64,000 nt of DNA from an uncultured Eubacteriales bacterium (GCA_902796025.1 CADBNW010000060.1:972-64971); one strand, 5' to 3'; shown: positions 2,725 to 62,238, counted from the first letter of the stretch. Translations and numbers: made by a program. Notes: a model not told the origin generated them from the letters alone.

Positions 2725-5097
2725 ATGAAAAACGCCGCGATCATACTTTGTGCCGGCAAGGGCACGCGGATGAACGATGATTCCCAAAACAAGGTCTGCT
2801 TCGATTGCGCGGGCGTTCCCGTGATCAAGCGCATCCTTCACAACATGCGCCTTGGCGGCATAGACCTGTTCGTCATCGTGGTTGGGCACCTGCCGGAATC
2901 GGTCATGCGCTGTCTGGACGGCGAGGAGGGCGTGATCTACGCCTATCAAAAGGAGCAAAAGGGCACCGGGCACGCGGCCCTGTGTGGGCTCAGGGCCCTA
3001 AAGGACATCGGCTACAGCGGCAGCGCGGTCATCTCCATGGGCGACAAGATCATCGCCCCGCAGGTCATAAGCGAATTGCTCTCCAAAAAAGAGGGCGCGG
3101 TGTGGGGCGTGCAGCCCGTAAACAACAACTACCACGGCGGGCGCGTGGTGATGTGCGAGGGCAGGCCCTGCGGCGTGGTGGAGCTGCCGGACGCGGTGCT
3201 CATGTCCCTTGCGGATAAAGCAGAATGCGAATACGACTCTGAAATTGCGCGCTACCGCCTGAACGAAAAAAAGGCGGCCAGGATCCGCGCCGCCGCTTCC
3301 AAGCAAAAGCCCTGCGGCACGCGGCTTTTGGCGGGCAAGCTCTTTACAGCCCAGCAGATCCTTGAAAGTCCCTACGCAAACGGCGGCCTGTACTGCTTTG
3401 ATGTAAACAAGGTGATCACCGCCCTTTCCACCTGCAACGCGCAAAACGCGCAGGGGGAGATCTATCTGACGGACGCCTTGGAATGGTTTGCCTTAAACGA
3501 CAGCGTCACGATCTACGAGATCAAAAACGCCGAAGACATGCTGACCTACAGTTCCAAATCCGAGCTGCGCGAAATGAGCATGCACTTTATGAAGACGGCC
3601 TCCGCCCTGCTTTGCGACATCGAAAGCGGCGCCTGCGACGAGGTCTTTGATGAGCTTTATGGAAGCATCGATGAAAAGGCCCGCTATACCCAGTTGCTCA
3701 AGGCGTTCCTCTCCCGCTACGGCGACAAAAAGCTTATGATCACCCGGGCCCCCGGGCGCGTGAACCTCATGGGCCGGCACATCGACCACCGCGGCGGCAG
3801 CATAAACGTGATGGCCATAAACCGCGACACCCTCTTTGCCGTAGCGCCCCGCGCAGACGATCAGGTGAACCTTTCTAACGTCGACCCTGCCTATCCTGAC
3901 CGCTCCTTTTCGATCAGCGCCTTGATGCCCCGGGGAAGCTACGCCTCCTGGCTGGATTACCTAAACGCGCCAGAGACCCAAAGCGCCCTTGCAAGCAGCC
4001 GGGGCGACTGGGCCAACTATGTCAAATCGGCCGTGGCCCGCGTGCAGCTGGATACCGACCTGCCCCTTTGCGGCATGGACATGATGGCAAGCGGCAACAT
4101 CCCCGTGGCCGCCGGGCTTTCCTCCTCCTCCAGCATCGTGGTCGCGGTGATGGAGGCCGTAACTTCGCTCAACTGCCTCAATTACACCGACAGCGCCTTT
4201 GTGAGCCTGTGCGGCGAGGGTGAATGGTTCGTGGGCTCCCGCGGCGGCGCGGGCGACCACGCGGCCATGAAGTGCGCCAAAAAGGGCAGCGTGATCCACT
4301 TGGGCTTTAAGCCCTTTACGATCGGTCAAACCGTTCCCTTCTCGGATAAGTACGCGGTGATCGTCGCAAACAGCATGCTCAAGGCCAAAAAGTCCGAGGG
4401 CAGCAAGGATATCTTTAACGCCCGCGTGGCCGCCTATGAGGTGTCGTTCATGATCCTAAAGCGCCTGTTCCCGACGCTGAACCTCGTGGAATTTCGCGAC
4501 CTTGCGGCGATCCGCCCCTATTCCAAAATTTATACAATTCTAAAAAGCCTGCCCGAGACCATGACCCGAAGCGGCATCAAGGCGCTTTTGCCGGAGTACG
4601 CAAACGAGCTTGAGCGCCTCTTTGCCACCCACAGCGATCCCGTTGTGTACGAGCTTCGCGCCGTCACCCTCTACGGCATATCGGAGTGCGTGCGCGCCGA
4701 GGCCTTCATGGAGCTTTTGAAAAAGGGCGATTACGCCGCTCTTGGGCAGATGATGAAGATCAGCCACGACGGCGACCGCATAAAGCGCTGCGCGGTAAGC
4801 GACGCCTTTTTGGATCAGCTGATCCGGGAAAACGCGGACGTCGCCCTGCAGTACGGCGGATACGGCTGCTCCACCAAGCAGATCGACGCGCTATGCGATC
4901 TGCTGAACGCCGCCCCCGGGGTGCTAGGCAGCGAGCTTGTGGGCGCGGGCCTTGGCGGCTGCGTGGTTGCGCTTGTGCAAAAGGACCGGGCGCAGGAGGT
5001 CATACGCCTTTTGAATACCGAATACTACGACAGGCACGGCTACGAGCACAGCGCTTCGGTCTTTACCTCCTCCCCCGGCTCCCGCGCGATCTATTAA
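2725..5097 (+). CDS. Fused sugar-1-phosphate nucleotidylyltransferase (N-terminal) / GHMP-family sugar kinase (C-terminal)
   Basis: 790 aa. The N-terminus has LCAGKGTRM and QKEQKGTGHA (NTP-transferase signatures). The C-terminus has APGRVNLMGRHIDHRGG (galactokinase-like), PVAAGLSSSSSIVVA (GHMP motif 2) and GAGLGGCVVALV (motif 3). Confidence 0.8.
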   Translation: MKNAAIILCAGKGTRMNDDSQNKVCFDCAGVPVIKRILHNMRLGGIDLFVIVVGHLPESVMRCLDGEEGVIYAYQKEQKGTGHAALCGLRALKDIGYSGSAVISMGDKIIAPQVISELLSKKEGAVWGVQPVNNNYHGGRVVMCEGRPCGVVELPDAVLMSLADKAECEYDSEIARYRLNEKKAARIRAAASKQKPCGTRLLAGKLFTAQQILESPYANGGLYCFDVNKVITALSTCNAQNAQGEIYLTDALEWFALNDSVTIYEIKNAEDMLTYSSKSELREMSMHFMKTASALLCDIESGACDEVFDELYGSIDEKARYTQLLKAFLSRYGDKKLMITRAPGRVNLMGRHIDHRGGSINVMAINRDTLFAVAPRADDQVNLSNVDPAYPDRSFSISALMPRGSYASWLDYLNAPETQSALASSRGDWANYVKSAVARVQLDTDLPLCGMDMMASGNIPVAAGLSSSSSIVVAVMEAVTSLNCLNYTDSAFVSLCGEGEWFVGSRGGAGDHAAMKCAKKGSVIHLGFKPFTIGQTVPFSDKYAVIVANSMLKAKKSEGSKDIFNARVAAYEVSFMILKRLFPTLNLVEFRDLAAIRPYSKIYTILKSLPETMTRSGIKALLPEYANELERLFATHSDPVVYELRAVTLYGISECVRAEAFMELLKKGDYAALGQMMKISHDGDRIKRCAVSDAFLDQLIRENADVALQYGGYGCSTKQIDALCDLLNAAPGVLGSELVGAGLGGCVVALVQKDRAQEVIRLLNTEYYDRHGYEHSASVFTSSPGSRAIY

Positions 5098-5147
5098 TAA
5101 GCATTTTACGCAAAACAGAGCAGATTTCATCTTTTACATTTGCTGTG

Positions 5148-5176
5148 TTGCCATACGGCGCTTTTCGCGCTATAAT
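5148..5176 (+). promoter_or_regulatory. SigA-type promoter: TTGCCA, 17-nt spacer, TATAAT
   Basis: TTGCCA at 5148-5153 and TATAAT at 5171-5176. It lies about 30 nt upstream of upp. Confidence 0.6.
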
Positions 5177-5208
5177 AAAGGCGCAACGAAATACGCGAGG
5201 AGGACACC

Positions 5209-5838
5209 ATGGGAAACGTTCATGTTATAGACCATCCGCTCATACAGCACAAGCTCACGCTGATGCGCCGCGCCGACACCGGTGCGAAGGATTTCCGCGA
5301 GCTGCTTGAGGAGATCGCCACCCTCATGTGCTACGAAGTAACCCGCGACCTCCCAATGGAAGAAATAGAGATAGAAACCCCCATCTGCAAGTGCAAAAGC
5401 CGCGTGATCACCGGCAAGAAGCTGGGCATCGTGCCCATCCTGCGCGCGGGCCTTGGCATGGTGGACGGCTTTGTGAACCTGATCCCCACCTGCAAGGTGG
5501 GCCACATCGGCCTGTACCGCGACCCCGAGACCCACGAGCCCGTGGAGTATTACTGCAAGCTGCCCCCGGACGTTGAGGAGAGAGAGATCATCGTGGTGGA
5601 TCCCATGCTGGCTACCGGCGGTTCCTCCACCGACGCCATCACCATGCTCAAGCAGCACGGCTGCAAAAACATCAAGCTCGTGTGCCTGGTCGGCGTAAAC
5701 GAAGGCATCCAGCGCGTGCAGCAGGCGCATCCGGACGTGGACATCTACATCGCAGCCATCGACGAATACCTAAACGAGCACAAGTACATCGTGCCCGGCC
5801 TTGGCGACGCGGGCGACCGCATCTTCGGCACCAAATAA
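5209..5838 (+). CDS. upp: Uracil phosphoribosyltransferase
   Basis: 209 aa. [20 protein letters not shown]...[10 protein letters not shown]...[14 protein letters not shown] is a full-length match to the Upp pattern. Confidence 0.95.
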
Positions 5839-49638: not shown

Positions 49639-52600
49639 ATGAACAAGCTCATTCGCGCGCTTTGCCTTATGCTGGCAGCCCTGCTTGCGTTGAACGCATT
49701 CGGGGCCGGCGCAGAAATATTTGTCATTCCAAACGGCGTCGCTGTGATCGAGAGCGAGGCCTTTTCGGGCGTGGATTTCCCGGACGGCGTGCTGATCCCC
49801 CCGACGGTCACCCATATCGGCAAAAACGCCTTTAGCACAAACGTCATTTACGGCCTTGAGGGCAGCGCGGCGCAGGCCTACGCCCAGGAGAACGATCTGG
49901 AGTTTCGCGGCGCAGGCATCAGCGGCTTAAGCGTCGAGGCCCCGGCCTTTGCGTCCCCTTACCGCCCCTTCGAGGTAAAAGTAAGCTGCGTTTCTCCCCT
50001 GCCCGTAGACTACAGCGTGCGCTTTTACAAAAACGGCGCATGCCTTGCCGAGGTCTCCGCTTTAGACGGCGTCGCAAGCGCCACGCTCCTTGAGGGAGGA
50101 CTGTACGACATCGGCGTCACCGCCCAAAATGGCATCGGTCATGCGGAAGCGTACTTCGAGGGAGAGATCGAGATCTACGAGCCCGTGCACCTCATCGCCT
50201 CTTCCTGGACGGTGCGCACAGGCGAAGCCTTTTGCCCTGTGGACGAAGCCGAAACGCGAAGCGTGACGCTCTCCTGCGCCGATCCCGCCATTTCCATCCA
50301 GGGCGGCAGCGTAACGGCGACGGCCACGGGCGTCTACACTGTTACCGCGCAGACCGAATGCGAGGGCCTGCCCGTCTATACAGACTTCACGGTGAACTGC
50401 GTCATTCCCGTGGACGCGCTTACCACCTCCGAAGCGGATGTCGAGCTCTACATCGGCGAAAGCTTTGCCCCGGAGATCCGCGCGCTACCGGAGAACGCCT
50501 CCCCTTACACCCTGGATTTTGCAAGCAGCGACCCCGCCGTCGCCTCTGTTGACGCCTACGGCACCGTCACTGCGCTTTCGCAGGGCCAGTGCCGCGTAAG
50601 CGTCACTACCTTCGACGCAGCGGGCGACATCTTTATCCGCGTGAAACAGCCCGCGCAGACGCTTTACGTCAGCAGCGAGCGCGTCACCCTCCAAACCGGG
50701 GCGCAGCAGCAGCTTGGCTTTGAAATCTCCCCGGCCAATGCCGACGACGTCGCCGTCATTTGGTCGTCCTCCGATCCCTCCATCGCCTCCGTCACGCCGC
50801 GAAGCGGCCTTGTGACCGGGCTTACGCCCGGCGATTGCCTGATCACCGCTCGCCTGTCCTCTCAAACGGAGCTGGTGTTCTCTGTCCCCGTCACCGTGAC
50901 GCAGGGCGTTTCCGAAATCAGAGCCGAGATCCCCTCCATCCTGTACGCAGGCGATTCCTGCACCATCCATCCCGTCGTCCTTCCGCAGCAAGCCGGTGAC
51001 GCGCGCATCCAATATGCCGTGAGCGACGAAAGTGTGCTCGCCGTAAGCCCGGATGGTGAACTGGACGCGCTCAATCCCGGGCGCGCGCTTGTGACCCTGA
51101 CCGCTCCCAACTGGGTAAGCGCCAGCTACGAGGTACAGGTGTACGAGCGCTGCGAAGCCATCGTGCCGCGCATCAGCGAGCTGGTTTTGAATCCCGGCCT
51201 CAGCGCAGACGCAAGCGCGCTGTTCAGCTTTTTGCCAGAGGGCGTGCCTGCAGAAAACGCTTCCTACACATCAAGCGATCCCTCCATCGTCTCCATAGAC
51301 GCCCAGGGGAGAATCAGCGCCCTGTCCGCCGGCAGCGCCAACATCGAGGCGCGCTTGGACGAGGCTGTATATTCCTTGCCCGTGCGCGTGGTCACGGACG
51401 GTAAGGTCATAAGCAGCGTAAGTCTTTCGCAGTATTACGCGGTTTTGACCCCCGGTGCAACGGTTTCCGTCACGCCCTCCTTTGGCAACGCCGCCGCCAA
51501 ATACAAGCGCGGCGCATGGTATTCCGACGCGCCGCAGGTAGTGAGCGTCGCCTCAACCGCTTCAAACGGCACGGTCACGCTGAAGGCGCTGTCTCCCGGC
51601 AAAGCCACCGTGACCCTGCTGTCCAGCAGCGGCTGCAGCGCCTCCCTGCTTTTGATCGTAAACCCCGTCGCCTTAAAGTCCATAAGCGTCAAGGCCCCCG
51701 CCGAGCCGCTTTATCCCGGCGACAGCGTAGCGCTTTCCTACACCTACAGCCCGTCCGGCGCGGACACGAGCGGCGTTTTCCTCTATTCCTCGGACGACTC
51801 CGTGGCCACCGTCAGCGAGGACGGCATGCTGACCGCCGTCGGCGCCGGAACATGCGACATCTTCGTAAGCTGCGATACGGCGCTTGCCAGCTGCTCCATC
51901 ACGGTAAACGGCCGCCCCATGACCTCGGCAGCGCTTGCAAGTGATACGCTCCTGGGCATGGCAGGAGAGGGCGCTTCCATCCAGTATAGCTTTGAACCCT
52001 CTGACGCCTCTCCCGCACGCTTTGCCTGGCAAAGCGACGATCCCGCAATCGCAGAGGTAAGCGCAAACGGTCATGTCAGCTTTGTGACCGCCGGCACGAC
52101 ACAGCTGCACGGCACGGCCACAGACGGCAGCGGCCTTAAGCTGGAGCTCAGCGTACAGGTAAGCGAGATCGCCCTGCGCGCACTGGAGCCGGATTTTGAC
52201 AGTCTGGACCTCGAATACGGCCAGTCCCGCCAGATCACCTGCGCTGTCTATCCGCAAAACGCCAGCTACGGTGAGGTGCGCTTTACTTCCTCCGACGAGA
52301 GCGTCGCGCTTGTGGACGAAAGCGGCATGGTCACCGCCCTTCGCGAGGGCAGCGCGGTCATCTTCGCAAGCGCCGGGCACGGCGATACTCTCATAACCCG
52401 CACCGTGGAGGTAAACGTCACCCGCCCCTCCAGTACGGTCTACCGCGCCTTCATCATGGGCCAGTTCACCGTTCCCGGCGCGGACGGCTATCTGCCCTTC
52501 AGCGTAAATGGCACCCGGGGCGTGCACGACGCGATCAGCCAAAGCACCCTGGGCGGCGCGGCGTACCAGATCAATTACCTGCCCGCAAGCCCCTCCGTGG

Positions 52601-53229
52601 AAAGCGTAAGGGCGGCCCTGTCCAGCCTGGCCGCGCAGGCGGACTCGGATGACGTCACCTTCCTCTACCTCCTCACCCACGGCTCCTATACGGATTCCTC
52701 CGGCTACTTCATGCAGTTTTCAAACGGCGCGCATTATTACGCCGACCAGCTGATTGCGGACGTCAGCCGCATCTCCGGCCACGTGGTGCTGGTGCTTTGC
52801 ACCTGCCACAGCGGGCGCGTGTTCGGTTCTGCCAAATTGAAGGCCATCGTCAGCGCCGGTGGAGCCTATACCGGCGCAAAGGGCCCAGGGCATCTTAGCG
52901 TGCTTTGCTCCTCCACCGACACCAACTCCAGCTATTACAAAACCCTGAACGCCCTGCAATCCTACGATTTCTTTACCCGCGCGTTCACGCTGGGGCTGGG
53001 CTGGAACATGCTAAGCGACGTCTCCGCCCCCCTCGCCGCAGACGCAAACGGCGACGCGCGCGTGACGCTAAGCGAGCTTGCTCCCTGGTCGCGCAGCAAA
53101 ACCCAGCAGCTGATCTCCTCCTTCGTGCAATTGAAGGGCACAGGCGAGTTCGGCGGCAATCAAAACCAGTTTCCAAGATACTTCATCGCCGCGGGCGACG
53201 AGGATCTTGCGCTCACAGAAAGGCGATAA
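49639..53229 (+). CDS. Giant secreted protein: BspA-type LRR + about 8-9 Big_2 Ig-like repeats + C-terminal caspase-like (C14) domain
   Basis: The ATG at 49639 follows GGAGG. The signal peptide is MNKLIRALCLMLAALLALNAFGAGA. The LRR is VIPNGVAVIESEAFSG...IPPTVTHIGKNAFS. Recurrent SSDPxxASVxxxGxVTAxxxGxxxI motifs mark the Big_2 repeats. The C-terminus has FLYLLTHGSY and VLVLCTCHSG (a His/Cys dyad) and ADANGDARVTLSELA. Confidence 0.75.
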   Translation: MNKLIRALCLMLAALLALNAFGAGAEIFVIPNGVAVIESEAFSGVDFPDGVLIPPTVTHIGKNAFSTNVIYGLEGSAAQAYAQENDLEFRGAGISGLSVEAPAFASPYRPFEVKVSCVSPLPVDYSVRFYKNGACLAEVSALDGVASATLLEGGLYDIGVTAQNGIGHAEAYFEGEIEIYEPVHLIASSWTVRTGEAFCPVDEAETRSVTLSCADPAISIQGGSVTATATGVYTVTAQTECEGLPVYTDFTVNCVIPVDALTTSEADVELYIGESFAPEIRALPENASPYTLDFASSDPAVASVDAYGTVTALSQGQCRVSVTTFDAAGDIFIRVKQPAQTLYVSSERVTLQTGAQQQLGFEISPANADDVAVIWSSSDPSIASVTPRSGLVTGLTPGDCLITARLSSQTELVFSVPVTVTQGVSEIRAEIPSILYAGDSCTIHPVVLPQQAGDARIQYAVSDESVLAVSPDGELDALNPGRALVTLTAPNWVSASYEVQVYERCEAIVPRISELVLNPGLSADASALFSFLPEGVPAENASYTSSDPSIVSIDAQGRISALSAGSANIEARLDEAVYSLPVRVVTDGKVISSVSLSQYYAVLTPGATVSVTPSFGNAAAKYKRGAWYSDAPQVVSVASTASNGTVTLKALSPGKATVTLLSSSGCSASLLLIVNPVALKSISVKAPAEPLYPGDSVALSYTYSPSGADTSGVFLYSSDDSVATVSEDGMLTAVGAGTCDIFVSCDTALASCSITVNGRPMTSAALASDTLLGMAGEGASIQYSFEPSDASPARFAWQSDDPAIAEVSANGHVSFVTAGTTQLHGTATDGSGLKLELSVQVSEIALRALEPDFDSLDLEYGQSRQITCAVYPQNASYGEVRFTSSDESVALVDESGMVTALREGSAVIFASAGHGDTLITRTVEVNVTRPSSTVYRAFIMGQFTVPGADGYLPFSVNGTRGVHDAISQSTLGGAAYQINYLPASPSVESVRAALSSLAAQADSDDVTFLYLLTHGSYTDSSGYFMQFSNGAHYYADQLIADVSRISGHVVLVLCTCHSGRVFGSAKLKAIVSAGGAYTGAKGPGHLSVLCSSTDTNSSYYKTLNALQSYDFFTRAFTLGLGWNMLSDVSAPLAADANGDARVTLSELAPWSRSKTQQLISSFVQLKGTGEFGGNQNQFPRYFIAAGDEDLALTERR

Positions 53230-53232
53230 AGC

Positions 53233-53460
53233 ATGAGATGCTCCTGTCAGAATTGCGGCACCTACATGGTGCAGTCCGAAGGCCTTGAAAAGGGCTGCGT
53301 GTGTCCCAACTGCCTCACCCGCTGCAAGCAATGCCTGGGCACGGACAGCGTCGTGCCCCGCGACGCGCTTAAGCAGGCAGCGCTTACATACCTGTACCGG
53401 GCCGAAGCGCAGGAGGCGCTTGACGACGAGGAGGAGTACGATGGCAACGACGTCGATTGA
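53233..53460 (+). CDS. Small Cys-rich zinc-ribbon protein with acidic tail
   Basis: 75 aa. MRCSCQNCGTYM...GCVCPNCLTRCKQCLG carries 8 Cys in 34 aa. The C-terminus is DDEEEYDGNDVD. The gene starts 4 nt after the upstream stop. Confidence 0.55.
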   Translation: MRCSCQNCGTYMVQSEGLEKGCVCPNCLTRCKQCLGTDSVVPRDALKQAALTYLYRAEAQEALDDEEEYDGNDVD

Positions 53461-53962
53461 ATCTGCTCCCCTCGAGATCGAGCGCAAGTATCTGATCAAA
53501 AAGCCCCGGCCCGAAGCGCTTTTAAGCGTCCCCGGCTGCGTCTCAAGTGAGATCACGCAGACCTACCTTCTCAATCCGGAGGCGGTCGAACGCGTGCGAA
53601 AGCGCGTATACGCCGATAAAACCGTCTATACGCACACCCTGAAAAAGCGCATCAGCGCCCTGTCCGCGCACGAAGCAGAAAGCGAGATCGGCCCGGAGGA
53701 ATACGAGCAGCTTCTCCTTAAGCGCGATCCTGCCAGAAACGTCATCCACAAAACCCGCTACGCCCTGCCCTGCGGCAGCCTTGTTGCCGAGGTAGACGTC
53801 TATCCCTTCTGGCAGCGCCAGGCCGTCATGGAGATCGAGCTTCCCTCCGAGGACGCGCCCGTAACCATCCCTCCCTGCATCACGCTGCTTCGGGAAGTCA
53901 CCGGAAACCACGCCTATTCCAATAACCAGCTCAGCCTGCGCATCCCGGAAGAGGATATTTAG
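53441..53962 (+). CDS. CYTH-domain protein (triphosphate tunnel metalloenzyme)
   Basis: Start trimmed to the ATG at 53441. LEIERKYLIKK is the ExExK signature. At about 173 aa it matches the size of small bacterial TTM triphosphatases. It overlaps the preceding ORF by 20 nt. Confidence 0.8.
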   Translation: MATTSIESAPLEIERKYLIKKPRPEALLSVPGCVSSEITQTYLLNPEAVERVRKRVYADKTVYTHTLKKRISALSAHEAESEIGPEEYEQLLLKRDPARNVIHKTRYALPCGSLVAEVDVYPFWQRQAVMEIELPSEDAPVTIPPCITLLREVTGNHAYSNNQLSLRIPEEDI

Positions 53963-54011
53963 CCCAGATCTATGCTGTACACCCAATCCCCATCAGGAGG
54001 TTATCCCCTTA

Positions 54012-54887
54012 ATGAAAAAGCTGTTGTCCGCCCTTCTTTGCGCCCTGCTGCTCCTCTGCCTAACCGCCCAGGCCGGCGTGGTCACCGTGCTGGACCGGGA
54101 CGTGGAGCCACAGTTCGACGAAAACAGTCCGCTGCTTCGGGTCTACTTTTTCAATACCCGCGCCTCCGACTGCATTTTGCTGATGTGCGGCGGCAAGAGC
54201 ATGCTCGTGGACTGCGCGGACACCAACTACGGCAGCAAAGTCATCTATCCGGAGCTTCAAAAGCTCGGCATCACGCGCATCGATTACGCGGTGAACACCC
54301 ATCCCCACAACGACCACATCAACGGCTTCATCTCGCTTTTCGATTGCATCGAGGTAGGGCAGTTTTTCACCTGCTTCCCCCTGGATTACTGCCAGGAGCA
54401 GATCGACTGCATCGCCGCCTGCCGCGCGCACGGCATCGAGGTCGTGGAGTTCGATAACGACGCGGATCTCTCCTTCGGCGGCCTCGATATCTGGGTGTGG
54501 CGCGATCACAAGTACGATACCCCCTGGCCCACTGCCTGCAATCCCTGCTCGCTGATCATGCACGTAACATACGGCGATTGCACCCTCATCCTGACCGCAG
54601 ACTGCACCATCGAAAGCTTTATCGATCTCTACGCCGAAAAGGGCGAGCGCATCGCCTCGGACATCATCAAAATGCCGCATCACGGCCACAATCGCCCGTC
54701 CTACGACGCGTTCAAGGCCATCCATCCCCAGGTCGGCATAATCACCAACCATTACAGCGAGCGCATCCATCCCGTTTACCAGTTCATGTGCAACCATCGC
54801 TGCTTCCCCATGTACACCGGCAGCGGTCTCATCCAGGCTGCCACCGACGGTAAAACCTGGCAGGTCACGCAGTATTTGATCTGGTAG
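54012..54887 (+). CDS. Secreted MBL-fold hydrolase (ComEC C-terminal-domain-like)
   Basis: The signal peptide is MKKLLSALLCALLLLCLTAQA. CILLMCGGKSMLVDCA...VNTHPHNDHINGF...KMPHHGHN. Confidence 0.8.
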   Translation: MKKLLSALLCALLLLCLTAQAGVVTVLDRDVEPQFDENSPLLRVYFFNTRASDCILLMCGGKSMLVDCADTNYGSKVIYPELQKLGITRIDYAVNTHPHNDHINGFISLFDCIEVGQFFTCFPLDYCQEQIDCIAACRAHGIEVVEFDNDADLSFGGLDIWVWRDHKYDTPWPTACNPCSLIMHVTYGDCTLILTADCTIESFIDLYAEKGERIASDIIKMPHHGHNRPSYDAFKAIHPQVGIITNHYSERIHPVYQFMCNHRCFPMYTGSGLIQAATDGKTWQVTQYLIW

Positions 54888-55025
54888 CGCCCGGCTTAAG
54901 AAGCTCAAGATGGATCTGCGTTTTTACAGATGGATTCAAGCTCGCGGCAGATGCTGAAGAATGAATGCTGAAAACTGAAGATTCTATGCCAGATGTAGTG
55001 TGGATTATTTAGCGCTTACTGGCAA

Positions 55026-55058
55026 AAAAGACTTGAGGCAAATCGCTTCAAGTCTTTT
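55026..55058. terminator. Terminator-like hairpin at the left edge of the low-GC island
   Basis: AAAAGACTTGA-ggcaaatcgct-TCAAGTCTTTT. Confidence 0.4.
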
Positions 55059-55089
55059 CTCATGCTTTCAAAGGCTCAGTTTTCAGTAT

Positions 55090-55245
55090 ATCACTTTGGA
55101 TCACGGCAAGGCGCAGGCCAGCGCAACGGTCTATTCCGTCATGGAAACAGCGAAGGCCAACGGCCTGAATCCGGAAAAATACATAAGACACCTACTGACC
55201 ATCCTTCCGGAGCGCTTCGCCAAAGACTCGAAAGCCGATATTTTT
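55090..55245 (+). pseudogene. IS66-family transposase, C-terminal fragment only
   Basis: The translation ...DHGKAQASATVYSVMETAKANGLNPEKYIRHLLTILPERF matches the conserved IS66 TnpC C-terminal block (..ETAKANGLNPxxYL..LL..LP). No upstream transposase body is present. Confidence 0.7.
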
Positions 55246-55751
55246 GTCTTTTCTATGACCATGCAAAAAAGGGGCTGTGACACCCCGGCTTTCTCTTAAT
55301 GCCGTTCTTTCACAGCCCTATCCTTATTCAATCAATCTAATTCTTAAAGCATATAACACAACAATTTACTTGTTCGAACCAAATAGTCGTTCTCTGTTGT
55401 AGGAAATACATTGATTACGGCATTCGTCTGTTTATATTTTAAACATTTAGTAACTTCATGAACATCAAGAATTTCAGTTCGTCTGAGTTATACAAAACCT
55501 CATCAAAACACTTCTACGGCTAGCCAGATTTATCTCTCTTCGTTACAACTTATAACCAAACTTCCCCCTGCCGCAGATTGTAGTACCGTCAGTGACACAG
55601 GATGGTTTGCAATGTGCTTCGCTTAATATTACTTATGCGACGTTATTCTTTTGTCAAAGTGCAATTATCATGCAACTTATAGTTTTACGAGCTATCCTCT
55701 CTTTTCCTGCCAATTTCTGGAACTATTCCAAATATTGTTTTCAGCAACTTG

Positions 55752-56618
55752 TCAATCGCCCGGAATCTCACCGATATTGTTCGCAGCATTACGTCCCATA
55801 GCGATGATTTCTTCTGCCGAGAAAAGCTTTATAATAGATTCCGAATTTCTTATTGCTTTCTCCATGATTTGAGCTTTTCTTTTATCGCGTTCTTTTTGTG
55901 AAACGGTCAGCCTTTTCAGATCCTCAACCTTTTCCTGAAGCTCGTCTATATGCTTTTTTCTTTCCGGTATTCTGTCCAATTCATCCTGATATCTTTTTTT
56001 CTGCTTGTCTGCTGACAGCAGCTTTTGGATTTTGGGGTTCATTTCATCCAGCTGAGCCATTTTTTCTTGTATTTGTTGTTTGCTCCCCAGGGTGTCATTG
56101 TAAAGAAAATCTATCCATTCCTGCATCTTTGATATGGTTTCTGCAACTTCGTCTTCTCTGTTCAAAAATAAAAGCATATCGATCCAATGCATTCCTTTCG
56201 ACAGGGTAACCATGAAGTCCCGATTGAGTCTTTTTTCCAGTTCATAGATGTCATGAACTGAGTGGATCTTATTGAATGCACCGCAGACCTGCTCCTTATA
56301 GATCTGCAGAGCTGTCTGATAATCATCTGGATGTCGCCACAGTCGAAAGTACTCCCCTGGGTTCCAAAGACCAAATAAGGAGTATTCTTGACGATGGAAC
56401 ATTGTCATAAACGCATCGATGCTGAGGTCCCACAACCCGCCCACAGCATAGTTCACATCAAATGTGTGTCCCTGGCTTTTATTGAGAAGCCAAAGGGCAA
56501 TATACCATGAATTTTGAAAGTCGATCCGCCAGAAAGTCTGAGATCGTGCAACAAAACCGCTCTCAGACATTGTCATGTCAAAAACCTTGTGGAAGTATGA
56601 TAAGTTTTCTTTGTTCAT
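55752..56618 (-). CDS. Hypothetical protein, DUF4304-like N-terminal domain + charged coiled-coil tail (immunity-like)
   Basis: 288 aa, AT-rich. AGGAG RBS 8 nt upstream. The N-terminus ...SESGFVARSQTFWRIDFQNSWYIALWLLNKSQGHTFDVNYAVG follows the GF-x-(K/R)-x3-F-x-R-hydrophobic-strand pattern. The C-terminus is K/E/Q-rich and helical. Confidence 0.65.
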   Translation of the reverse strand: MNKENLSYFHKVFDMTMSESGFVARSQTFWRIDFQNSWYIALWLLNKSQGHTFDVNYAVGGLWDLSIDAFMTMFHRQEYSLFGLWNPGEYFRLWRHPDDYQTALQIYKEQVCGAFNKIHSVHDIYELEKRLNRDFMVTLSKGMHWIDMLLFLNREDEVAETISKMQEWIDFLYNDTLGSKQQIQEKMAQLDEMNPKIQKLLSADKQKKRYQDELDRIPERKKHIDELQEKVEDLKRLTVSQKERDKRKAQIMEKAIRNSESIIKLFSAEEIIAMGRNAANNIGEIPGD

Positions 56619-56631
56619 AGGCTATACTCCT

Positions 56632-56719
56632 TGGACTGGCATGGACAACCTGAGTGGTCAACGTCACCATATGTATACCAGTCTTTCGTTGTAGCCAGGC
56701 TATGTTTGCCTGTTGGTAG
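56632..56719 (-). mobile_element. Solo end remnant of the IS3-family element (IR + about 55 bp)
   Basis: TGGACTGGCATGGACAACCTGAGTGGTCAACG...ATACCAGTCTTTCGTTG..CAGGCTATGTTTGCCTGTTGGT aligns with 58230-58317 of the full copy. Similarity then stops. Confidence 0.75.
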
Positions 56720-56733
56720 GTAGGTAATTGCGT

Positions 56734-57609
56734 CTATTCACCAAGAAAAGAGCCCATATAATTCTGAAACGGAAATTTCCTTGTAAGTGTTTTTGAATAT
56801 CTCTCAAGTCTAGCATACCCTTCCCTCGCTGAATAATAGAGGAATTCGTTTACTATTAACTGGTTGTTTGACTTGACGACTTCCAGTATTTGATTATAAC
56901 GTAGATATATATCAAATATTTGAGATGCTCCTGGATATTCATTTGGAAACTTATAAGCGGTATTATATTTGTTGGGTAGCTTTATATTGTTATTTTCAAA
57001 TGTTTCTGTTAAATCAGCAATGACCTTCATTAAATCTGGTAGTAGCTGTGCACCTTTGCCAACTCGTAGCATTGGCATTATTTCTGCTGTTGCTGCTCTT
57101 CGATTCTCTTTATTCAACTGGGACGTTAATACTTTATCATAAAAACATAGTACACTCTGTGCATCAATTATCTTATCAAATAGCGGTAATATGTTTTTTT
57201 TCAACATCTCTATTTCTATGTCTATATCTGGCATGGTTTGAATAGGTAAATGAAGTATTTCCTCGATAGAAAAACCTTCCCAGCCATTACCAGACTTAGT
57301 AGACGCTAATTGTATGTCCCATGATGTTTTTTCAGCCAAATAATTATATAGAGGTTTAATTCCTATGCGAATTTTAAGGGGATCTCTATTATTATGAACT
57401 ATGCTGATAATTTGCAAAATGCCTTCACCATGTATTCTATAAAAAGTTGAATACTTTTTATAGAAGTTGAATTTATTCAAATCAGATAATAGCAACTCTG
57501 CAATCGAATTCCTTAACATTCTTTTCTCTTTAGGTGTTTCATTAAGCACATCTAAATACGTTTTTTGCGTCGTCATCCTTCTATTAGTTCCTCCCATATG
57601 CATGATCAT
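56734..57609 (-). CDS. Hypothetical protein, second DUF4304-like paralogue (immunity-like)
   Basis: 291 aa, AT-rich. ...DLNKFNFYKKYSTFYRIHGEGILQIISIVHN...ILPLFDKIIDAQSVLCFYDKVL has the same architecture as 55752-56618. The start is uncertain (57609, 57597 or 57576). Confidence 0.6.
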   Translation of the reverse strand: MIMHMGGTNRRMTTQKTYLDVLNETPKEKRMLRNSIAELLLSDLNKFNFYKKYSTFYRIHGEGILQIISIVHNNRDPLKIRIGIKPLYNYLAEKTSWDIQLASTKSGNGWEGFSIEEILHLPIQTMPDIDIEIEMLKKNILPLFDKIIDAQSVLCFYDKVLTSQLNKENRRAATAEIMPMLRVGKGAQLLPDLMKVIADLTETFENNNIKLPNKYNTAYKFPNEYPGASQIFDIYLRYNQILEVVKSNNQLIVNEFLYYSAREGYARLERYSKTLTRKFPFQNYMGSFLGE

Positions 57610-57745
57610 CCATCAGGTCGCTTCCGCACTCCCGGAATACTCCGTCGTCATGGCCATGAATGGCGTTGGTCCCACACTGGGGCCCTCAGCTTATGGCCGA
57701 GATCGGTGACCCCACACGGTTCACGCACAGGGATGCGGTACTGTC
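57605..57745 (+). pseudogene. IS110-family transposase fragment (frameshifted)
   Basis: A GC-richer patch. Two frames together read ...LPEYSVVMAMNGVGPTLGP / QLMAEIGDPTRFTHRDAV, the conserved IS110 C-terminal block (..PGIGP..A..L.AEIGD..RF). Confidence 0.65.
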
Positions 57746-57810
57746 AATTTGTCATTTTTACTCCATTTTGGGTAGGCTTAACAATGCGTTGTTCATCCCG
57801 TGGCTTCTGA

Positions 57811-58116
57811 CTATTGATTTTTAACATCTTCATTTCTATTACATCGCCGCAGGACTAAACTTGCCTTTTGGGCCGCCTCTATGATTTCATCATCGTTATA
57901 ATACATATTTGGGATTTTCAAATCTTCGACGTATGGCGAGTATCGTTCTGCTTTAGAAAAGAGATCAAAGAACGCAGAATGATCTTCATCTGTTAATTTA
58001 GAATAGTCTGTATTCACAGCATATTTCAATACAAATGCATCGCAGAAACCATGAACAGAACATTTTCGCTCTAAAAGCATATTAATCATACTTAAAAGTT
58101 CATCTCTATCGGTCAT
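57811..58116 (-). CDS. Colicin-immunity-like small protein (orphan immunity candidate)
   Basis: About 101 aa from the ATG at 58116; the track's GTG at 58149 is an alternative start. MTDRDELLSMINMLLERKCSVHGFCDAFVLKY...DHSAFFDLFSKAERYSPYVEDL...YYNDDEIIEAAQKASLVL follows the self-protective colicin-like immunity pattern (L..li..ll...is..eF..f...y....f..lf.a.e.y.P). This assignment is by eye only. Confidence 0.5.
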   Translation of the reverse strand: MTDRDELLSMINMLLERKCSVHGFCDAFVLKYAVNTDYSKLTDEDHSAFFDLFSKAERYSPYVEDLKIPNMYYNDDEIIEAAQKASLVLRRCNRNEDVKNQ

Positions 58117-58229
58117 TGTTAATTCACCACACAGTTTTCTTTTAGTCACGAATACGGCTCAATGGACCTATTGAGTCTTTTAGATACAAGAAATGATAAA
58201 CTGTACGATTATTCTCATTATATAATACT

Positions 58230-59477
58230 TGGACTGGTATGGAAAACCTGAGTGGTTTCCGTGATCCTATGCATACCAGTCTTTTGTTGGGTTCAGGCTA
58301 TGTTCGCCTATTGGTGCTGTAGCCTATAGGCTACAGGGCTCATGGAGCCCAGTGTGCTGTGCAGACGCTTCCGGTTATAAAATATTTCGACGTAATAAAA
58401 GATATTCCTGCTTTAGCGCGCTCATTCCGTCGTATTCTTTTCTCAAAATGTACTCTTTCTTCATGCTCGCGAAAAACCTCTCCACGCAGCTGTTGTCGTA
58501 CGGATAGCTCGGCTTGCTCATGCTGCCTTTGATCCCGTATTCTTCCAGCAGCTGCTGAACCATCCGGCTGCTGTATTGACTTCCTCTGTCGCTATGGAAA
58601 ACCAGAGTTTCGGTTTCCTGTTACGCGCGACCGCATTCATCAGTGCCCTGCAGACAAGCTCCGCGTTCATCTTCCTGCTGACCGCATATCCGATCACTTC
58701 CCGGTTATACAAGTCCATTACGACCGCAAGATATGCCCAGCCCAGTTTTGTTTTGAGATACGTGATGTCTCCCGCCCAGATCTCATTCATCCTTCCAGGC
58801 CTGAACTGTTGCTTCACGATGTTCTTGCAATATCTCCCCTCAGACCGTTCCTGCCTTCCGGGCTTGTACTTCTTCAACTGCACCGGATAGAACCCATTTT
58901 CACGCATGATCCGCCGGATCTTTCATTCACTCATCTCCTTCCCGCTTTTCTGCAGTGCTCCCCTTATACGCCTGCAGCCATAGGTGCTATTGCTGTCTTT
59001 GAACACTTCCTGGACTTCCCGGATGTCCCTCTCCTCATTTTTGATCTTTTCTCTTCGCCTCGCCTCTGCTTTCTTCCAATGATAATATGCTGCTTCCTTC
59101 AACCCCAATGCCCTGCACTGTTTACATAGATCGCTTCACATTTCATTCGTGTGGTTGCATAAAGATGTGCAGGGATTTTTTAGTATCTCAACTTTCTCCT
59201 TCTCGTCCGCCAACTCTTTTTCTTTCTTCTTCAGCTCTTTCTCCAGCTCTTTTACTCGGTACACCAGTTCTCCCTCCGTCTTTGGCTCTTTCTTCCTGAC
59301 GATCCCTTTTGCTTCGGCGTAGCTGGGCATGTTGTGCGCTCGTCGGTCATACTCGCCACATCGTAACCGCCGGTATCCAGAAAGCCTTTAGTGTGGCAAG
59401 CGACGTGGTTTTCAGGTACTTACTGAAGCCATATGCATATGGTTGCGGAAACCACTCAGGTTTTCCATATCAGTCCA
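58230..59477 (-). mobile_element. IS3-family insertion sequence, full-length ends but inactivated orfAB
   Basis: The terminal inverted repeats are TGGACTGGTATGGAAAACCTGAGTGGTTTCCG (58230-58261) and the reverse complement of 59446-59477, matching at 31 of 32 positions. Inside are an orfA remnant with a leucine zipper (59136-59330) and an rve/DDE orfB split over at least 3 frames. The 3 bp flanking each end are ACT and CAG, so no target-site duplication is present. Confidence 0.85.
58375..59108 (-). pseudogene. IS3-family transposase orfB, frameshifted
   Basis: Three fragments remain. They are 58923-59108 (..STYGCRRIRGALQKSGK), 58518-58907 (EIWAGDITYLKTKLGWAYLAVVMDLYNREVIGY..) and 58375-58563 (MVQQLLEEYGIKGSMSKPSYPYDNSCVERFF). 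The frame breaks just before the HSDRGSQY block seen intact in the copy at 59851-60354. Confidence 0.85.
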
Positions 59478-59487
59478 CAGCTCTCAT

Positions 59488-59799
59488 CTATTGGGAATCC
59501 GAAAATAGTGTGACATCATCCGAATAGCTCTTTTTACTTGCTATTAATTCATCATTAATATACTTATACTCTACAATTAATACTCGTCTATCTTTCAGAA
59601 GGTGGAAAGAACAAATGACCATGCTTCCTCCGCTTTGAGCCTGAGGGTCAACTTGCATTGCTTCTTCAAAAGTTGTCTGCCCAATTTTTATAAAAGCATC
59701 GATGCTCTTTTGCTCCATTTTTTTATTCATAAAACTCAGACAGTACAGTAAAAGTAGACTTAAACCTATAATTAAGAATATTTTCTTATTGAACTTCAT
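59488..59799 (-). CDS. Small membrane-anchored/secreted hypothetical protein
   Basis: The ATG at 59799 lies 9 nt after AAGGAG; the track start at 59808 abuts the RBS. MKFNKKIFLIIGLSLLLLYCLSF is a hydrophobic anchor, followed by a domain of about 80 aa. AT-rich. Confidence 0.6.
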   Translation of the reverse strand: MKFNKKIFLIIGLSLLLLYCLSFMNKKMEQKSIDAFIKIGQTTFEEAMQVDPQAQSGGSMVICSFHLLKDRRVLIVEYKYINDELIASKKSYSDDVTLFSDSQ

Positions 59800-59823
59800 A
59801 CTCAACATCTCCTTAGAGGGTTA

Positions 59824-60354
59824 CTCATGCATACCAGTCTTTTGTTGTGATCAGGCTATGTTCGCCTGTTGGTGCTGCAGCCTATAGGCTACAGGGCTCA
59901 AGGAACCCTGTGTGCTGTGCAGACGCTTCCGGTTATAGAGTATTTCGACGTAATAAAAGATATTCCTGCTTAGCGCACGCTTTCCGTCGTATTCTTTTTT
60001 CAAAATGTACTCTTTCTTCATGCTCGCGAAAAACCTCTCCACGCAGCTGTTGTCGTACGGATAGCCCGGCTTGCTCATGCTGCCTTTGATCCCGTGTTCT
60101 TCCAGCAGCTGCTGAACCATCCGGCTGCTGTATTGACTTCCTCTGTCGCTATGGAAAACCAGAGATTTCGGTTTTCCGTTCCGCTCGACCGCATTCATCA
60201 GTGCCCTGCAGGCAAGCTCCGCGTTCATCTTCCTGCTGGCCGCATATCCGATCACTTCCCGGTTATACAAGTCCATTACGACCGCAAGATATACCCAGCC
60301 CAGTTTTGTTTTGAGATCAACCGCAAAATCGGCAAAATGGAAGGATTCAGGCAT
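59824..60354 (-). pseudogene. Truncated IS3-family orfB copy (both IS ends missing) fused to flanking sequence
   Basis: Positions 59824-60317 align with 58266-58760 of the full copy, at roughly 90-95% identity by eye with small indels. The ORF at 59851-60354 keeps HSDRGSQY and the C-terminal E-region. It lacks the first catalytic Asp block (WAGDITY is replaced by MPESFHFADFAVD from flanking DNA). Confidence 0.8.
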
Positions 60355-60417
60355 GAACCACCCGTTGATGGTGTAACGGGAAGCTCGCCGAAAGCCCGTA
60401 TTTACCGGGGTTTTCGG

Positions 60418-60463
60418 GCAAAAAGCAACAACCCCAATCTCGTATCAGGATTAGGGTTGTTAG
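60418..60463 (-). terminator. Intrinsic terminator after tRNA-Leu(UAA)
   Basis: The minus strand reads AACAACCCTAATC-ctgatacga-GATTGGGGTTGTT followed by GCTTTTTG. Confidence 0.7.
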
Positions 60464-60467
60464 GCGC

Positions 60468-60550
60468 TGCTGAAGGCGGGACTCGAACCCGCACGCCGGT
60501 GAGAGCAGGGGATTTTAAGTCCCCGGTGTCTGCCATTCCACCACTTCAGC
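60468..60550 (-). tRNA. tRNA-Leu (anticodon TAA)
   Basis: The minus strand reads GCTGAAGTGGTGGAATGGCAGACACCGGGGACTTAAAATCCCCTGCTCTCACCGGCGTGCGGGTTCGAGTCCCGCCTTCAGCA. Acceptor pairing is GCTGAAG/CTTCAGC, the anticodon loop is CT-TAA-AA, and a long variable arm is present. Confidence 0.92.
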
Positions 60551-60559
60551 ATGCGAAAT

Positions 60560-60588
60560 ATTATAATCGTGCCAGAACAAGCTGTCAA
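60560..60588 (-). promoter_or_regulatory. Perfect consensus promoter (TTGACA, 17-nt spacer, TATAAT) for tRNA-Leu(UAA)
   Basis: On the minus strand, TTGACA is at 60588-60583 and TATAAT at 60565-60560, 9 nt upstream of the tRNA 5' end. Confidence 0.75.
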
Positions 60589-60623
60589 GCAAACAGTGTT
60601 AAATTGAAAATGCGCGGCCGTTG

Positions 60624-60652
60624 TTGACATTTTGCAATATTTATGATATACT
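60624..60652 (+). promoter_or_regulatory. SigA-type promoter: TTGACA, 17-nt spacer, TATACT
   Basis: TTGACA at 60624-60629 and TATACT at 60647-60652. It lies 32 nt upstream of the ATG at 60685 and diverges from the tRNA promoter. Confidence 0.65.
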
Positions 60653-60684
60653 TTCTTCATACTTTCAAAAAGGGAGTTCTGCTT

Positions 60685-62238
60685 ATGTGCAAAAGTAAAC
60701 GAGTGCTGGCATTGATTTGCAGCCTTGTGCTTATATTCTCTTGCTTTGATTTTGCCGCCCGCGCGGAGTCTGCGAGCTACGCCTTTATAAAGACCACGCG
60801 CGCTTCGCTGTATTCTTCCTCCGCCATGAGCTCCCGCTCCCGTTACCTCTATAAATACGAGATCGTAAGCGTGCTTAGCACCGACAACGTCAAGGCGCGC
60901 GTGGAATACAACAACAAAAACTATTATATATACCTTAAGGATATCGCGATCGTTTCCAATCCCCTGAATCAGCAAGCTGTGGTAAGCCGGAATACCTACG
61001 TTTACGCCAAGCCATCCACCTCCGCCGCTCGGGCCTCCGTAAGCAAAAACCTGAGCCTCACGGTGCTGGCCATAAACGGCAGCTGGGCCATGGTGGAACG
61101 AAACGGCAACACCGGCTACATCAAAACCGCCTGCCTTGCAAAGCCCGAGGCCGAGACCCAGGCGCCCATCGCCACCAAGCCCACAAAGGATAGTTACGAC
61201 CTGGGCACCGGCGCCGTGTCCTGCGATTTGGAGGCGCTGGTCAGCACCGCCTCCCTTTCCGTGTACGCAAAGGCCTCCGCCTCCTCGACAAAGCTTGGCA
61301 GCCTCAAAAAAAACACCCGGGTAAACGTGTACGCCTACAACGGCACCTGGGCGTATATCGAGCTTGAGGGACACTTCGGCTACTGCAAAAAGGCGTATCT
61401 GAAGCTCGTCCCCGCAGCCACCCCCACGCCCCAGCCCACGCCGACTCCGGACGATTCCCTCTACGGTCTTACCAAATGCGATTCCGTGGACGCCGTGACC
61501 AAGGCCAAGGTCAAGGTCTACGCGCAGCCAGACACCAAGTCCACCTATCTTGGCTACATCAGCAAAAACACCCAGCTGCAGGTGATCGCCCTAAGCGCAA
61601 AATGGGCGCTGATCGAGCTTGCGGGCAGGCAGGGCTATACGCAGCTTTCGGGGCTTAAAAAGCTTAGCCCCGCAGTAACGCCGACGCCCACCCCCACGCC
61701 TGCTCCTACGCCCACCCCCACGCCTGCTCCTACGCCCACCCCTACACCTGCTCCTACTCCTGCGCCGACCTACACCTCCACCGATCCTCTGTTTTTGAAT
61801 ACCTCCACCAGCAACGAGCAAAAAATCTACGAATACCTGACCGCGCACACCCCCTACAACGAGGCGGTAGCCTGCGGCATTCTTGCAAACATCAAGCAGG
61901 AATCCAACTTCAGCCCCACCAGCGGCAAAGGCAGCAATTATCAGGGGCTTTGCCAGTGGAGCACCACGCGCTTTGCGATCCTCGTAAGCTGGTGCGAAAA
62001 GCAGGGCTTTGATCCCTATTCCCTGGAGGGCCAGGTAAAATTCCTCTATTACGACCTTTCCCAGCGCTATACGCTGTACAACAAAGCGCTTTTGCAGATC
62101 GAAAACACCTCTGAAGGCGCATACGAGGCGGGCTACTATTTCTGCTATCACTACGAGCGCCCGGCGAGCCTCGAAAGCTCCTCCGTAAAGCGCGGCACGC
62201 GCGCCAGGGACGTTTACTGGGTAAAATACGCACATTGA
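60685..62238 (+). CDS. Secreted cell-wall hydrolase: four SH3b-like modules + Pro/Thr linkers + phage-tail-type lysozyme domain
   Basis: The ATG at 60685 follows AAGGGAG. The signal peptide is [27 protein letters not shown]. There are four modules, each ending in G(Y/F)(I/C/T)(K/Q). The C-terminus [21 protein letters not shown]...[11 protein letters not shown]...[12 protein letters not shown] matches the phage tail lysozyme pattern. Confidence 0.75.
61684..61755 (+). repeat. 3 x 24-bp tandem repeat encoding a (TPTPTPAP)3 linker
   Basis: ACGCCCACCCCCACGCCTGCTCCT occurs at 61684, 61708 and 61732. The third copy has 2 substitutions. The repeat is in frame within the CDS. Confidence 0.9.

Follow-up and report, generated by a model that had tools for sequence, protein, structure and literature searches.

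The 64,000-nt stretch of DNA analysed here (the window) comes from an uncultured Eubacteriales bacterium (GCA_902796025.1, CADBNW010000060.1:972-64971), and its positions 54,900-60,465 form an AT-rich islet lying between the gene for a metallo-beta-lactamase (MBL)-fold protein and a gene for tRNA-Leu(UAA). The reading we favour, with somewhat better than even confidence, is that this islet was acquired horizontally, has been shuffled by insertion sequences (IS), and keeps at least two immunity genes, open reading frames (ORFs) 2 and 3, without toxins. The two ORFs are:

56,734-57,609, minus strand: ORF2, 291 aa, GC 0.33, member of a rare family of 270-311-aa proteins.
57,811-58,149, minus strand: ORF3, GC 0.345, a small helical protein of 101 aa (from an ATG at 58,116) or 112 aa (from a GTG at 58,149).

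The islet is foreign in composition. In 400-nt sliding windows, GC falls from 0.57-0.64 to 0.32-0.50 across approximately 54,900-60,900, and in 1-kb bins the islet lies at 0.38-0.46 while every other bin of the 64 kb is at 0.53 or above (flanks about 0.60), which makes 54,900-60,465 the sole compositional outlier. The tetranucleotide L1 distance between the islet and the rest of the window is 0.616, compared with 0.134 ± 0.014 (maximum 0.165) for 50 islet-sized chunks of host sequence, and GC at third codon positions is 0.28-0.47 in the four ORFs of the islet and 0.68-0.83 in host genes. An earlier note on this DNA, written from the sequence by itself, had described an AT-rich drop against flanks of about 60% GC, extending from the MBL stop at 54,887 to the terminator of tRNA-Leu(UAA). 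Sliding-window GC and the tetranucleotide profile bear this out, and both borders were confirmed: the MBL-fold ORF ends at 54,887, and the islet extends from 14 nt past its stop codon to the tRNA-Leu(UAA) terminator. Within the islet, composition is a mosaic of three classes (about 0.33 for ORF2, ORF3 and ORF4, 0.415 for ORF1 and about 0.50 for the IS pieces), so that its content probably came from more than one source.

The family of ORF2 is rare, and its genomic context points to polymorphic toxins. A word-indexed search of 5.8 billion proteins returned only ORF2 itself, and an exhaustive HMMER search of 1.84 billion representatives gave a family of seven proteins. Five of the seven (273-311 aa) align end to end, including a C-terminal KYSK.F.K.(Y/F)P motif, which indicates that ORF2 is full length; its start is more likely Met12 (57,576), giving 280 aa, and a 280-aa form is on record. 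On one contig (L022), the family member P0011 (686-1,549) starts 24 bp past a gene tipped by an RHS core (3-662), in a same-strand layout. The first 32 residues of that upstream gene (…RFVNADAIFEGNLYTYCFNNANGFTDEDGD) match positions 42-75 of the 76 in TIGR03696 (E = 5.7e-4), and the end of the RHS core is followed by a variable tail of about 190 aa with a D…EVK pattern and a hydrophobic C-terminus. A toxin tip after an RHS core, followed by an immunity gene, is the textbook polymorphic toxin layout, and ORF2 is a candidate for conferring immunity to an RHS-delivered toxin. By eye, the tail appears nuclease-like, and together with P0011 it is a candidate new toxin/immunity pair; neither this tail nor the family member P0008 has a match in the plasmid collection.

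A further relative, P0010, is encoded within at least 9 kb of low-GC DNA (about 0.40 vs 0.53) among same-strand genes of unknown function, one of them Imm44-like, and this stretch may be a larger immunity island. The same stretch (L017 7,000-16,365; L018 4,500-11,463) carries a BhlA-type holin gene and is adjoined by a polysaccharide-synthesis cluster. Sub-threshold family matches were seen to DUF4304 in P0007 (15.5 bits) and P0009 (14.2 bits; cutoff 23.2) and to Imm48 in P0012 (18.8 bits; cutoff 25). A likeness to DUF4304 had also been noticed by eye and is a lead only; neither ORF2 nor ORF1 matches this family (PF14137, gathering threshold 23.2 bits). The AlphaFold (AF2) model of ORF2, built from the seven-sequence alignment, is confident (pLDDT 80.4, pTM 0.79). 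It combines a helix-hairpin at the N-terminus with a four-strand sheet and a C-terminal half made of helices, and finds no fold match, enzyme or other, in the PDB or BFVD at E ≤ 0.001.

The context of its homologues supports a tie between the ORF3 family and LXG-toxin cassettes. Only two matches to ORF3 are present in the 5.8-billion-sequence collection (P0004 and P0005, 96% and 83% identical over the aligned 83% of the query), and ORF3 has a ratio of nonsynonymous to synonymous substitution rates (dN/dS) of 0.22, a sign of purifying selection. A tblastn search of the plasmid collection with P0004 retrieved two Listeria monocytogenes records (E = 2e-6 to 7e-6), and the ORF3 family aligns with Listeria WP_014600482.1 over 83 columns (hhalign probability 97%, E = 1.1e-10). 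In NZ_LR134402.1 the genes are ordered, on one strand, DUF3130, hypothetical, LXG-domain protein (482 aa), hypothetical (123 aa) and ORF3 homologue. LXG toxins of the type VIIb secretion system have DUF3130 proteins as their export factors (PMC9600955). In NZ_CP030101.1 (L025 7,042-8,297), a full LXG gene is followed, about 5 kb further downstream, by a displaced module made up of a degraded DUF3130 gene, a 28-residue remnant of an LXG C-terminus, the 123-aa gene and the ORF3 homologue. Orphan toxin-tip/immunity modules usually take this form. The full LXG gene upstream in L025 has a different C-terminal domain, and the PLSDB gene table lists no genes in the stretch occupied by the module. In two other assemblies (L014 and L015), the same IS3 right end is found upstream of the ORF3 homologue; downstream of the homologue are a gene for an HTH_23/HTH_Tnp_1 protein (L014 577-1,347) and an inverted IS3 end (L015 780-877), respectively.

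A weak lead connects ORF3 with the colicin D immunity protein (ImmD). The structural model of ORF3 is weak (pLDDT 63), and in a Foldseek search of 350,542 PDB chains its two top-ranked matches were ImmD chains (1v74_B and 1tfk_B); both are small four-helix proteins sharing a (D/E)LF..AER(Y/F).P motif with ORF3. Membership of the ImmD family is not established, as the likeness is significant neither by sequence nor by fold: the motif, 11-15 residues, is all that aligns (pairwise E = 0.012-0.037), and there is no Pfam match. The C-terminal domain of the Listeria LXG protein was likewise considered as colicin D-like, an idea that was dropped since it had no sequence match in the PDB.

Several observations weigh against an immunity role for these genes. 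The RHS match upstream of P0011 scores 20.3 bits, below the curated cutoff of 32.5, because the contig end cuts the gene, and the Imm44-like match beside P0010 (E = 5.9e-5, 23.8 bits) is just below its cutoff of 25. The Listeria ORF3 homologue is the second, not the first, gene after the LXG toxin and so need not be its cognate partner, and the fold match of ORF3 to ImmD is not significant (E = 0.25-0.30, probability 0.77/0.75, TM 0.34-0.38). The copy of ORF3 in the window may itself be impaired. Its homologues P0004 and P0005 end in …EEAQKCRQ(R/S)LAAI, the window ORF3 ends in …EAAQKASLVLRRCNRNEDVKNQ, the last 17 or so residues differ, and DNA homology to L014 and L015 stops at 57,822-57,832, beside an IS110 fragment, indicating that the native C-terminus has been replaced. 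In the only informative context for ORF1 (locus L009, described below), the gene stands by itself amid housekeeping genes. No curated immunity family model accepts any of the four ORFs: ORF1-4 gave no match to Imm44, Imm48 or colicin D-type families at E ≤ 0.1, and P0004 gave none at E ≤ 1. In searches of Pfam, NCBIfam, PADLOC and PHROGs, ORF1-4 had no match other than coiled-coil noise in the C-terminal half of ORF1.

The earlier note had counted four intact minus-strand ORFs without enzyme motifs, three of them resembling immunity proteins. All four are on the minus strand, but ORF3 has lost its native C-terminus; no enzyme family or fold was matched, and ORF1-3, with few homologues, fit small, non-enzymatic and patchily distributed proteins. 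The immunity resemblance is upheld for ORF2 and ORF3, whose families occur in the position of immunity genes at polymorphic toxin loci, and not for ORF1, whose homologue does not, or ORF4, for which there is no evidence either way. It finds no counterpart in curated families (no matches), and comes entirely from where their homologues lie in other genomes.

Pfam scans covered the 10 kb left of the islet, the genes to its right and the largest ORFs of the window. These encode a Big_2 surface protein, ABC-transporter components, DNA polymerase III delta, TatD, an SH3-lysozyme, glycoside hydrolases, sugar kinases and similar enzymes; the flanks and the largest window ORFs are carbohydrate-metabolism and housekeeping genes; one ORF of 1,023 aa had no Pfam match. 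As the earlier note had held for toxin, integrase and secretion genes, the islet and the scanned ORFs contain no gene for a toxin, type VII secretion system (T7SS), RHS or LXG protein, export factor, secretion component or integrase, and the description of the immunity genes as orphans stands for the 64-kb window. The genes would not be orphans if the genome has their cognate RHS or LXG toxins at another place, the islet then being a displaced or duplicated store of self-immunity genes such as follows many toxin loci. We consider this quite unlikely. The 64 kb is the part of the genome examined, and displaced toxin-tip/immunity modules are common, that of Listeria L025 being an example; however, not even a toxin fragment accompanies the ORFs in the sequence scanned, and the GC content of the islet is far from that of the host, which favours import over internal duplication.

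The remaining two ORFs are:

55,752-56,618, minus strand: ORF1, 288 aa, GC 0.415, W-rich in its N-terminal domain and ending in a coiled coil; AAGGAG 8 nt upstream.
59,488-59,808, minus strand: ORF4, 106 aa (103 aa from MKFNKK); AAGGAG 9 nt upstream.

ORF1 and ORF4 may be further immunity genes. ORF1 has just two matches in the 5.8-billion-sequence collection (P0002, 96%; P0003, 73%). The 73% homologue (L009; DNA 81% identical) is alone in a 1.2-kb, 41%-GC islet of a genome of about 60% GC, bordered by an SH3-domain gene and, on the other side, by two tRNA-Met genes at their 3' end. Compared with this homologue, ORF1 has a dN/dS of 0.20 (dS = 0.67) and is thus a real gene under purifying selection. 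A GF..(R/K)..TF.RI motif seen by eye in both ORF1 and ORF2 suggested paralogy, which was rejected (BLASTP E = 1.0; hhalign probability 1%). ORF4 has a charged N-terminus, then a 17-residue hydrophobic stretch (an anchor or signal, by eye) and a small domain. It is the sole sequence of its 90%-identity cluster, found on eight contigs, and had no match in PDB, plasmid, phage and viral-contig searches, distant homologues not having been searched for.

Low-GC islets beside tRNA genes often hold defence genes, and the ORFs might instead be an uncharacterised small-protein system or its remnants, serving in anti-phage defence, abortive infection or as a toxin-antitoxin set. ORF1 has a long coiled coil, as do some defence proteins, and was considered as a known defence gene on its weak PADLOC matches (PbeC, E = 5e-4; DruC, E = 7.5e-4). 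All of these lie largely in or near the coiled-coil region and fit coiled-coil noise, and ORF2, ORF3 and ORF4 have none. Moreover, outside this species the genes do not occur together, ORF1 being alone in L009, ORF3 alone in L014 and L015 and the ORF2 family in other contexts, and within the islet IS debris lies between them and there is no operon. Such a system is highly unlikely.

The islet appears to have been cut up by IS elements, as the other features suggest:

54,888-54,999, no strand: left junction; synteny with the nearest non-conspecific relative found (L004) is lost at 54,901, 14 nt after the MBL stop codon.
55,000-55,299, plus strand: C-terminal fragment of an IS66-family transposase (Pfam DDE_Tnp_IS66_C, E = 5.8e-9).
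56,623-56,717, minus strand: IS3 right-end remnant, a 95-nt repeated block with a 46-nt terminal repeat at 56,632-56,677.
57,610-57,750 (approximate), plus strand: frameshifted fragment of an IS110-family transposase (Transposase_20, E = 5e-6, with a peptide stitched across the frameshift).
58,230-59,477, minus strand: IS3-family element of 1,248 bp, bounded by 46-nt inverted repeats that are 89% complementary.
59,827-60,317, minus strand: 3' part of an IS3 element (about 60,317-59,827), with rve, rve_3 and rve_2 domains in one frame (Pfam).
60,378-60,465, minus strand: tRNA-proximal segment of 88 nt, with two hairpins, one of them the tRNA terminator (60,427-60,460).
60,466-60,551, minus strand: tRNA-Leu(UAA), 3' end towards the islet.

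Read along the minus strand from the tRNA, the order is 88-nt segment, IS3 3' part, ORF4, 1,248-bp IS3, ORF3, IS110 fragment, ORF2, IS3 right-end remnant, ORF1, an AT-rich spacer of about 450 nt and the IS66 fragment, with the IS110 and IS66 pieces on the plus strand. The three unrelated IS families that the earlier note had listed (an IS66 fragment, an IS110 fragment and three IS3 pieces) are all there. The right-end remnant is 81% identical to 58,221-58,315 and is truncated against the 3' end of ORF2, orfB of the 1,248-bp copy has two frameshifts relative to the neighbouring IS3 copy, and the IS3 3' part is 94-96% identical to 58,269-58,759 but lacks the terminal 45 nt and the 5' half. The flanks of the 1,248-bp element differ (…ACT / IS / CAG…) and form no direct repeat, which would fit IS-IS recombination over a single clean insertion. 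Checked as composite transposons, the IS3 pieces bracket ORF4 and also ORF2-ORF3 in direct orientation, all copies being damaged and their flanks free of duplications. Between the truncated IS3 and the tRNA-adjacent segment is a stretch resembling neither (60,318-60,377), which encodes the first 13 codons (MPESFHFADFAVD) of a 167-aa ORF that runs into the IS3 fragment.

The junction at the MBL gene is variable among relatives. L004, at 86% nucleotide identity, is colinear with the window over 51,121-54,901 and diverges beyond; at the same MBL junction it has a different, apparently intact IS3-family element (3,800-5,600; orfA 151 aa, orfB 337 aa), followed by an alpha/beta-hydrolase gene that is absent from the window, and by no tRNA. 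The divergence marks the position after the MBL gene as a variable, IS-prone spot. Conspecific contigs do carry the islet (L001, 99.3% identical over 52,345-55,839; L002, identical over 56,535-58,076), further short contigs have, by cluster records, ORF1 together with ORF2 or ORF1 together with ORF3, and the ORF1-ORF2-ORF3 block recurs in other assemblies. The representative-genome collection does not include this species, its best match being 57% identical, from a water-buffalo rumen metagenome-assembled genome and cut by a contig end, and scans of genomes and metagenomes recovered no empty MBL/tRNA-Leu junction among relatives.

So much IS debris could mean that the islet is an IS graveyard, an AT-rich landing pad by a tRNA terminator that gathered random passengers or pieces of a degraded prophage or conjugative element, with ORFs that share no function. 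Within 5.6 kb there are three unrelated IS families, all of them damaged; the full-length IS3 lacks matching flanking repeats, which suggests IS-IS recombination; a different IS3 occupies the same junction in L004; and ORF3 adjoins IS3 ends or other transposases in L014 and L015 too. The compositions of the ORFs differ, and ORF1 and ORF4 give no functional signal. Against this, dN/dS values of about 0.2 for ORF1 and ORF3 reveal selection on the proteins, and two families point independently to toxin loci, which is unlikely for random passengers. A phage or plasmid origin was also considered, and neither the islet nor its ORFs had a nucleotide or protein match in the plasmid, phage and viral-contig collections, with the Listeria match as the sole exception. 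We regard the graveyard as unlikely and retain an islet of acquired immunity genes as the preferred reading.

Whether the islet entered at the tRNA is a separate matter. The tRNA-Leu(UAA) gene has a perfect TTGACA-17-TATAAT promoter (60,588-60,560), its 3' end faces the islet, as had been claimed, and it is directly followed by a hairpin with a 13-bp stem and a U-run (folding z = -4.0, 101-nt stretch); an Rfam search of the islet found nothing beyond the tRNA. The terminator hairpin (AACAACCCCAATCTCGTATCAGGATTAGGGTTGTT) and the one that follows tRNA-Met in L009-L013 agree at 34 of 35 positions, including the loop, and the 88-nt segment as a whole is 84% identical to the tRNA-Met-adjacent segment of these loci (L009 10,978-11,065). 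There the ORF1 homologue is 140 nt from the tRNA-Met hairpin, in a relative orientation opposite to that of the window. The 88-nt segment may mark where a mobile module ends, or represent a lineage-wide terminator cassette. L009 was rejected as an orthologous neighbourhood, as the content in common by tblastx is limited to ORF1 and the tRNA-adjacent segment, and the tRNAs differ.

The earlier proposal of an integrative island targeted to the tRNA holds as far as foreign, IS-riddled DNA is concerned. Like known tRNA-linked islands, the islet abuts a tRNA 3' end, is anomalous in composition and carries accessory cargo; unlike them, it has neither an integrase nor a duplicated tRNA 3' segment. 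The only rve domains in the islet belong to IS3 transposases, an att repeat derived from the tRNA was rejected, as no run of 11 nt or longer from 60,456-60,560 recurs exactly on either strand of 54,000-60,460, and none of the repeat families of the islet involves the tRNA. Integration at the tRNA is therefore not demonstrated, and since the ORF1 islet of L009 abuts tRNA-Met rather than tRNA-Leu, a single site-specific integrase does not fit. IS-driven accretion accounts for the anatomy equally well.

Taken as an islet of acquired immunity genes, the locus would have been built piecemeal, with insertion sequences cutting and rejoining it time and again, at a variable spot that separates the MBL-fold gene from the tRNA-Leu(UAA) terminator in an uncultured high-GC gut Clostridia lineage. 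The IS3 copies would account for the truncations and the lack of target duplications, and probably move genes as IS-flanked pieces and supply outward transcription. The product of ORF2 is proposed to bind and neutralise the C-terminal toxin domain of an RHS-type protein delivered by a competitor, and that of ORF3 an LXG/T7SS-type toxin delivered likewise. As no cognate toxin gene is nearby, both would be acquired defence and not self-protection. The conserved passengers would be a soluble protein with a coiled-coil tail (ORF1) and a membrane-anchored one (ORF4).

A more specific possibility is that IS3 right ends and the tRNA-adjacent hairpin module together form an integrase-free platform for the capture and expression of immunity genes in gut Clostridia, which we think very unlikely. 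Three of the four ORFs (ORF1, ORF3 and ORF4) have their start a short way downstream of a co-oriented IS3 right end, the ribosome-binding site of ORF1 abutting one of these ends (56,625-56,632). At one hybrid junction, a -35-like TTTCCA in the IS3 right inverted repeat and a flanking TATAAT, 17 nt apart, are aimed at ORF3 (58,245-58,217). The hairpin conserved at 34 of 35 positions marks ORF1-bearing low-GC islets at two tRNAs in two lineages. If real, the platform would be a Bacillota counterpart, with a different mechanism, of the recombinase-associated AID arrays described below.

Orphan immunity arrays on mobile DNA are established in the Bacteroidales AID and rAID-1 systems (Ross et al., 10.1101/471110), and other stores are the immunity islet of Salmonella Typhi (PMC7400221) and the immunity arrays of Vibrio cholerae (PMC5361080). 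The islet resembles these in having immunity-type genes without toxins, on acquired DNA of deviant composition at a variable chromosomal spot, presumably kept to resist non-self toxins, and on this reading it is a degenerate case of the already known class of orphan immunity islets. It differs in that the AID, Salmonella and Vibrio systems counter type VI secretion system (T6SS) effectors in Gram-negatives, whereas the islet is linked to RHS and LXG toxins in Bacillota. AID clusters are found on conjugative elements or are associated with a XerD-like tyrosine recombinase and repeated intergenic sequences, while the islet has no recombinase or conjugation gene, its only repeats are IS3 ends, and damaged IS elements are its sole agents of mobility. 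It also has just two to four such genes, none in a curated immunity family. In the LXG cassettes of the type VIIb system of Bacillota (PMC9600955, PMC10765036), the position taken by the Listeria ORF3 homologue, in the canonical order Lap1 (DUF3130), helper, LXG toxin and small genes, holds immunity genes and orphan modules. In contrast, the window has no LXG, Lap or T7SS genes, and its ORF3 is detached, IS-flanked and altered at the C-terminus.

The finding is incremental and introduces no new principle. For T6SS, stores of orphan immunity genes have been documented well in gut bacteria that are Gram-negative; for RHS and LXG toxins, the record from uncultured Clostridia of the gut is much thinner. 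If the favoured reading is true, damaged IS elements, and not integrases, can carry immunity genes between lineages. Two toxin/antidote pairs lend themselves to testing, the L022 genes for ORF2 and the Listeria locus for ORF3, and if ORF2 and ORF3 act as proposed, they would add two unannotated candidate immunity families.

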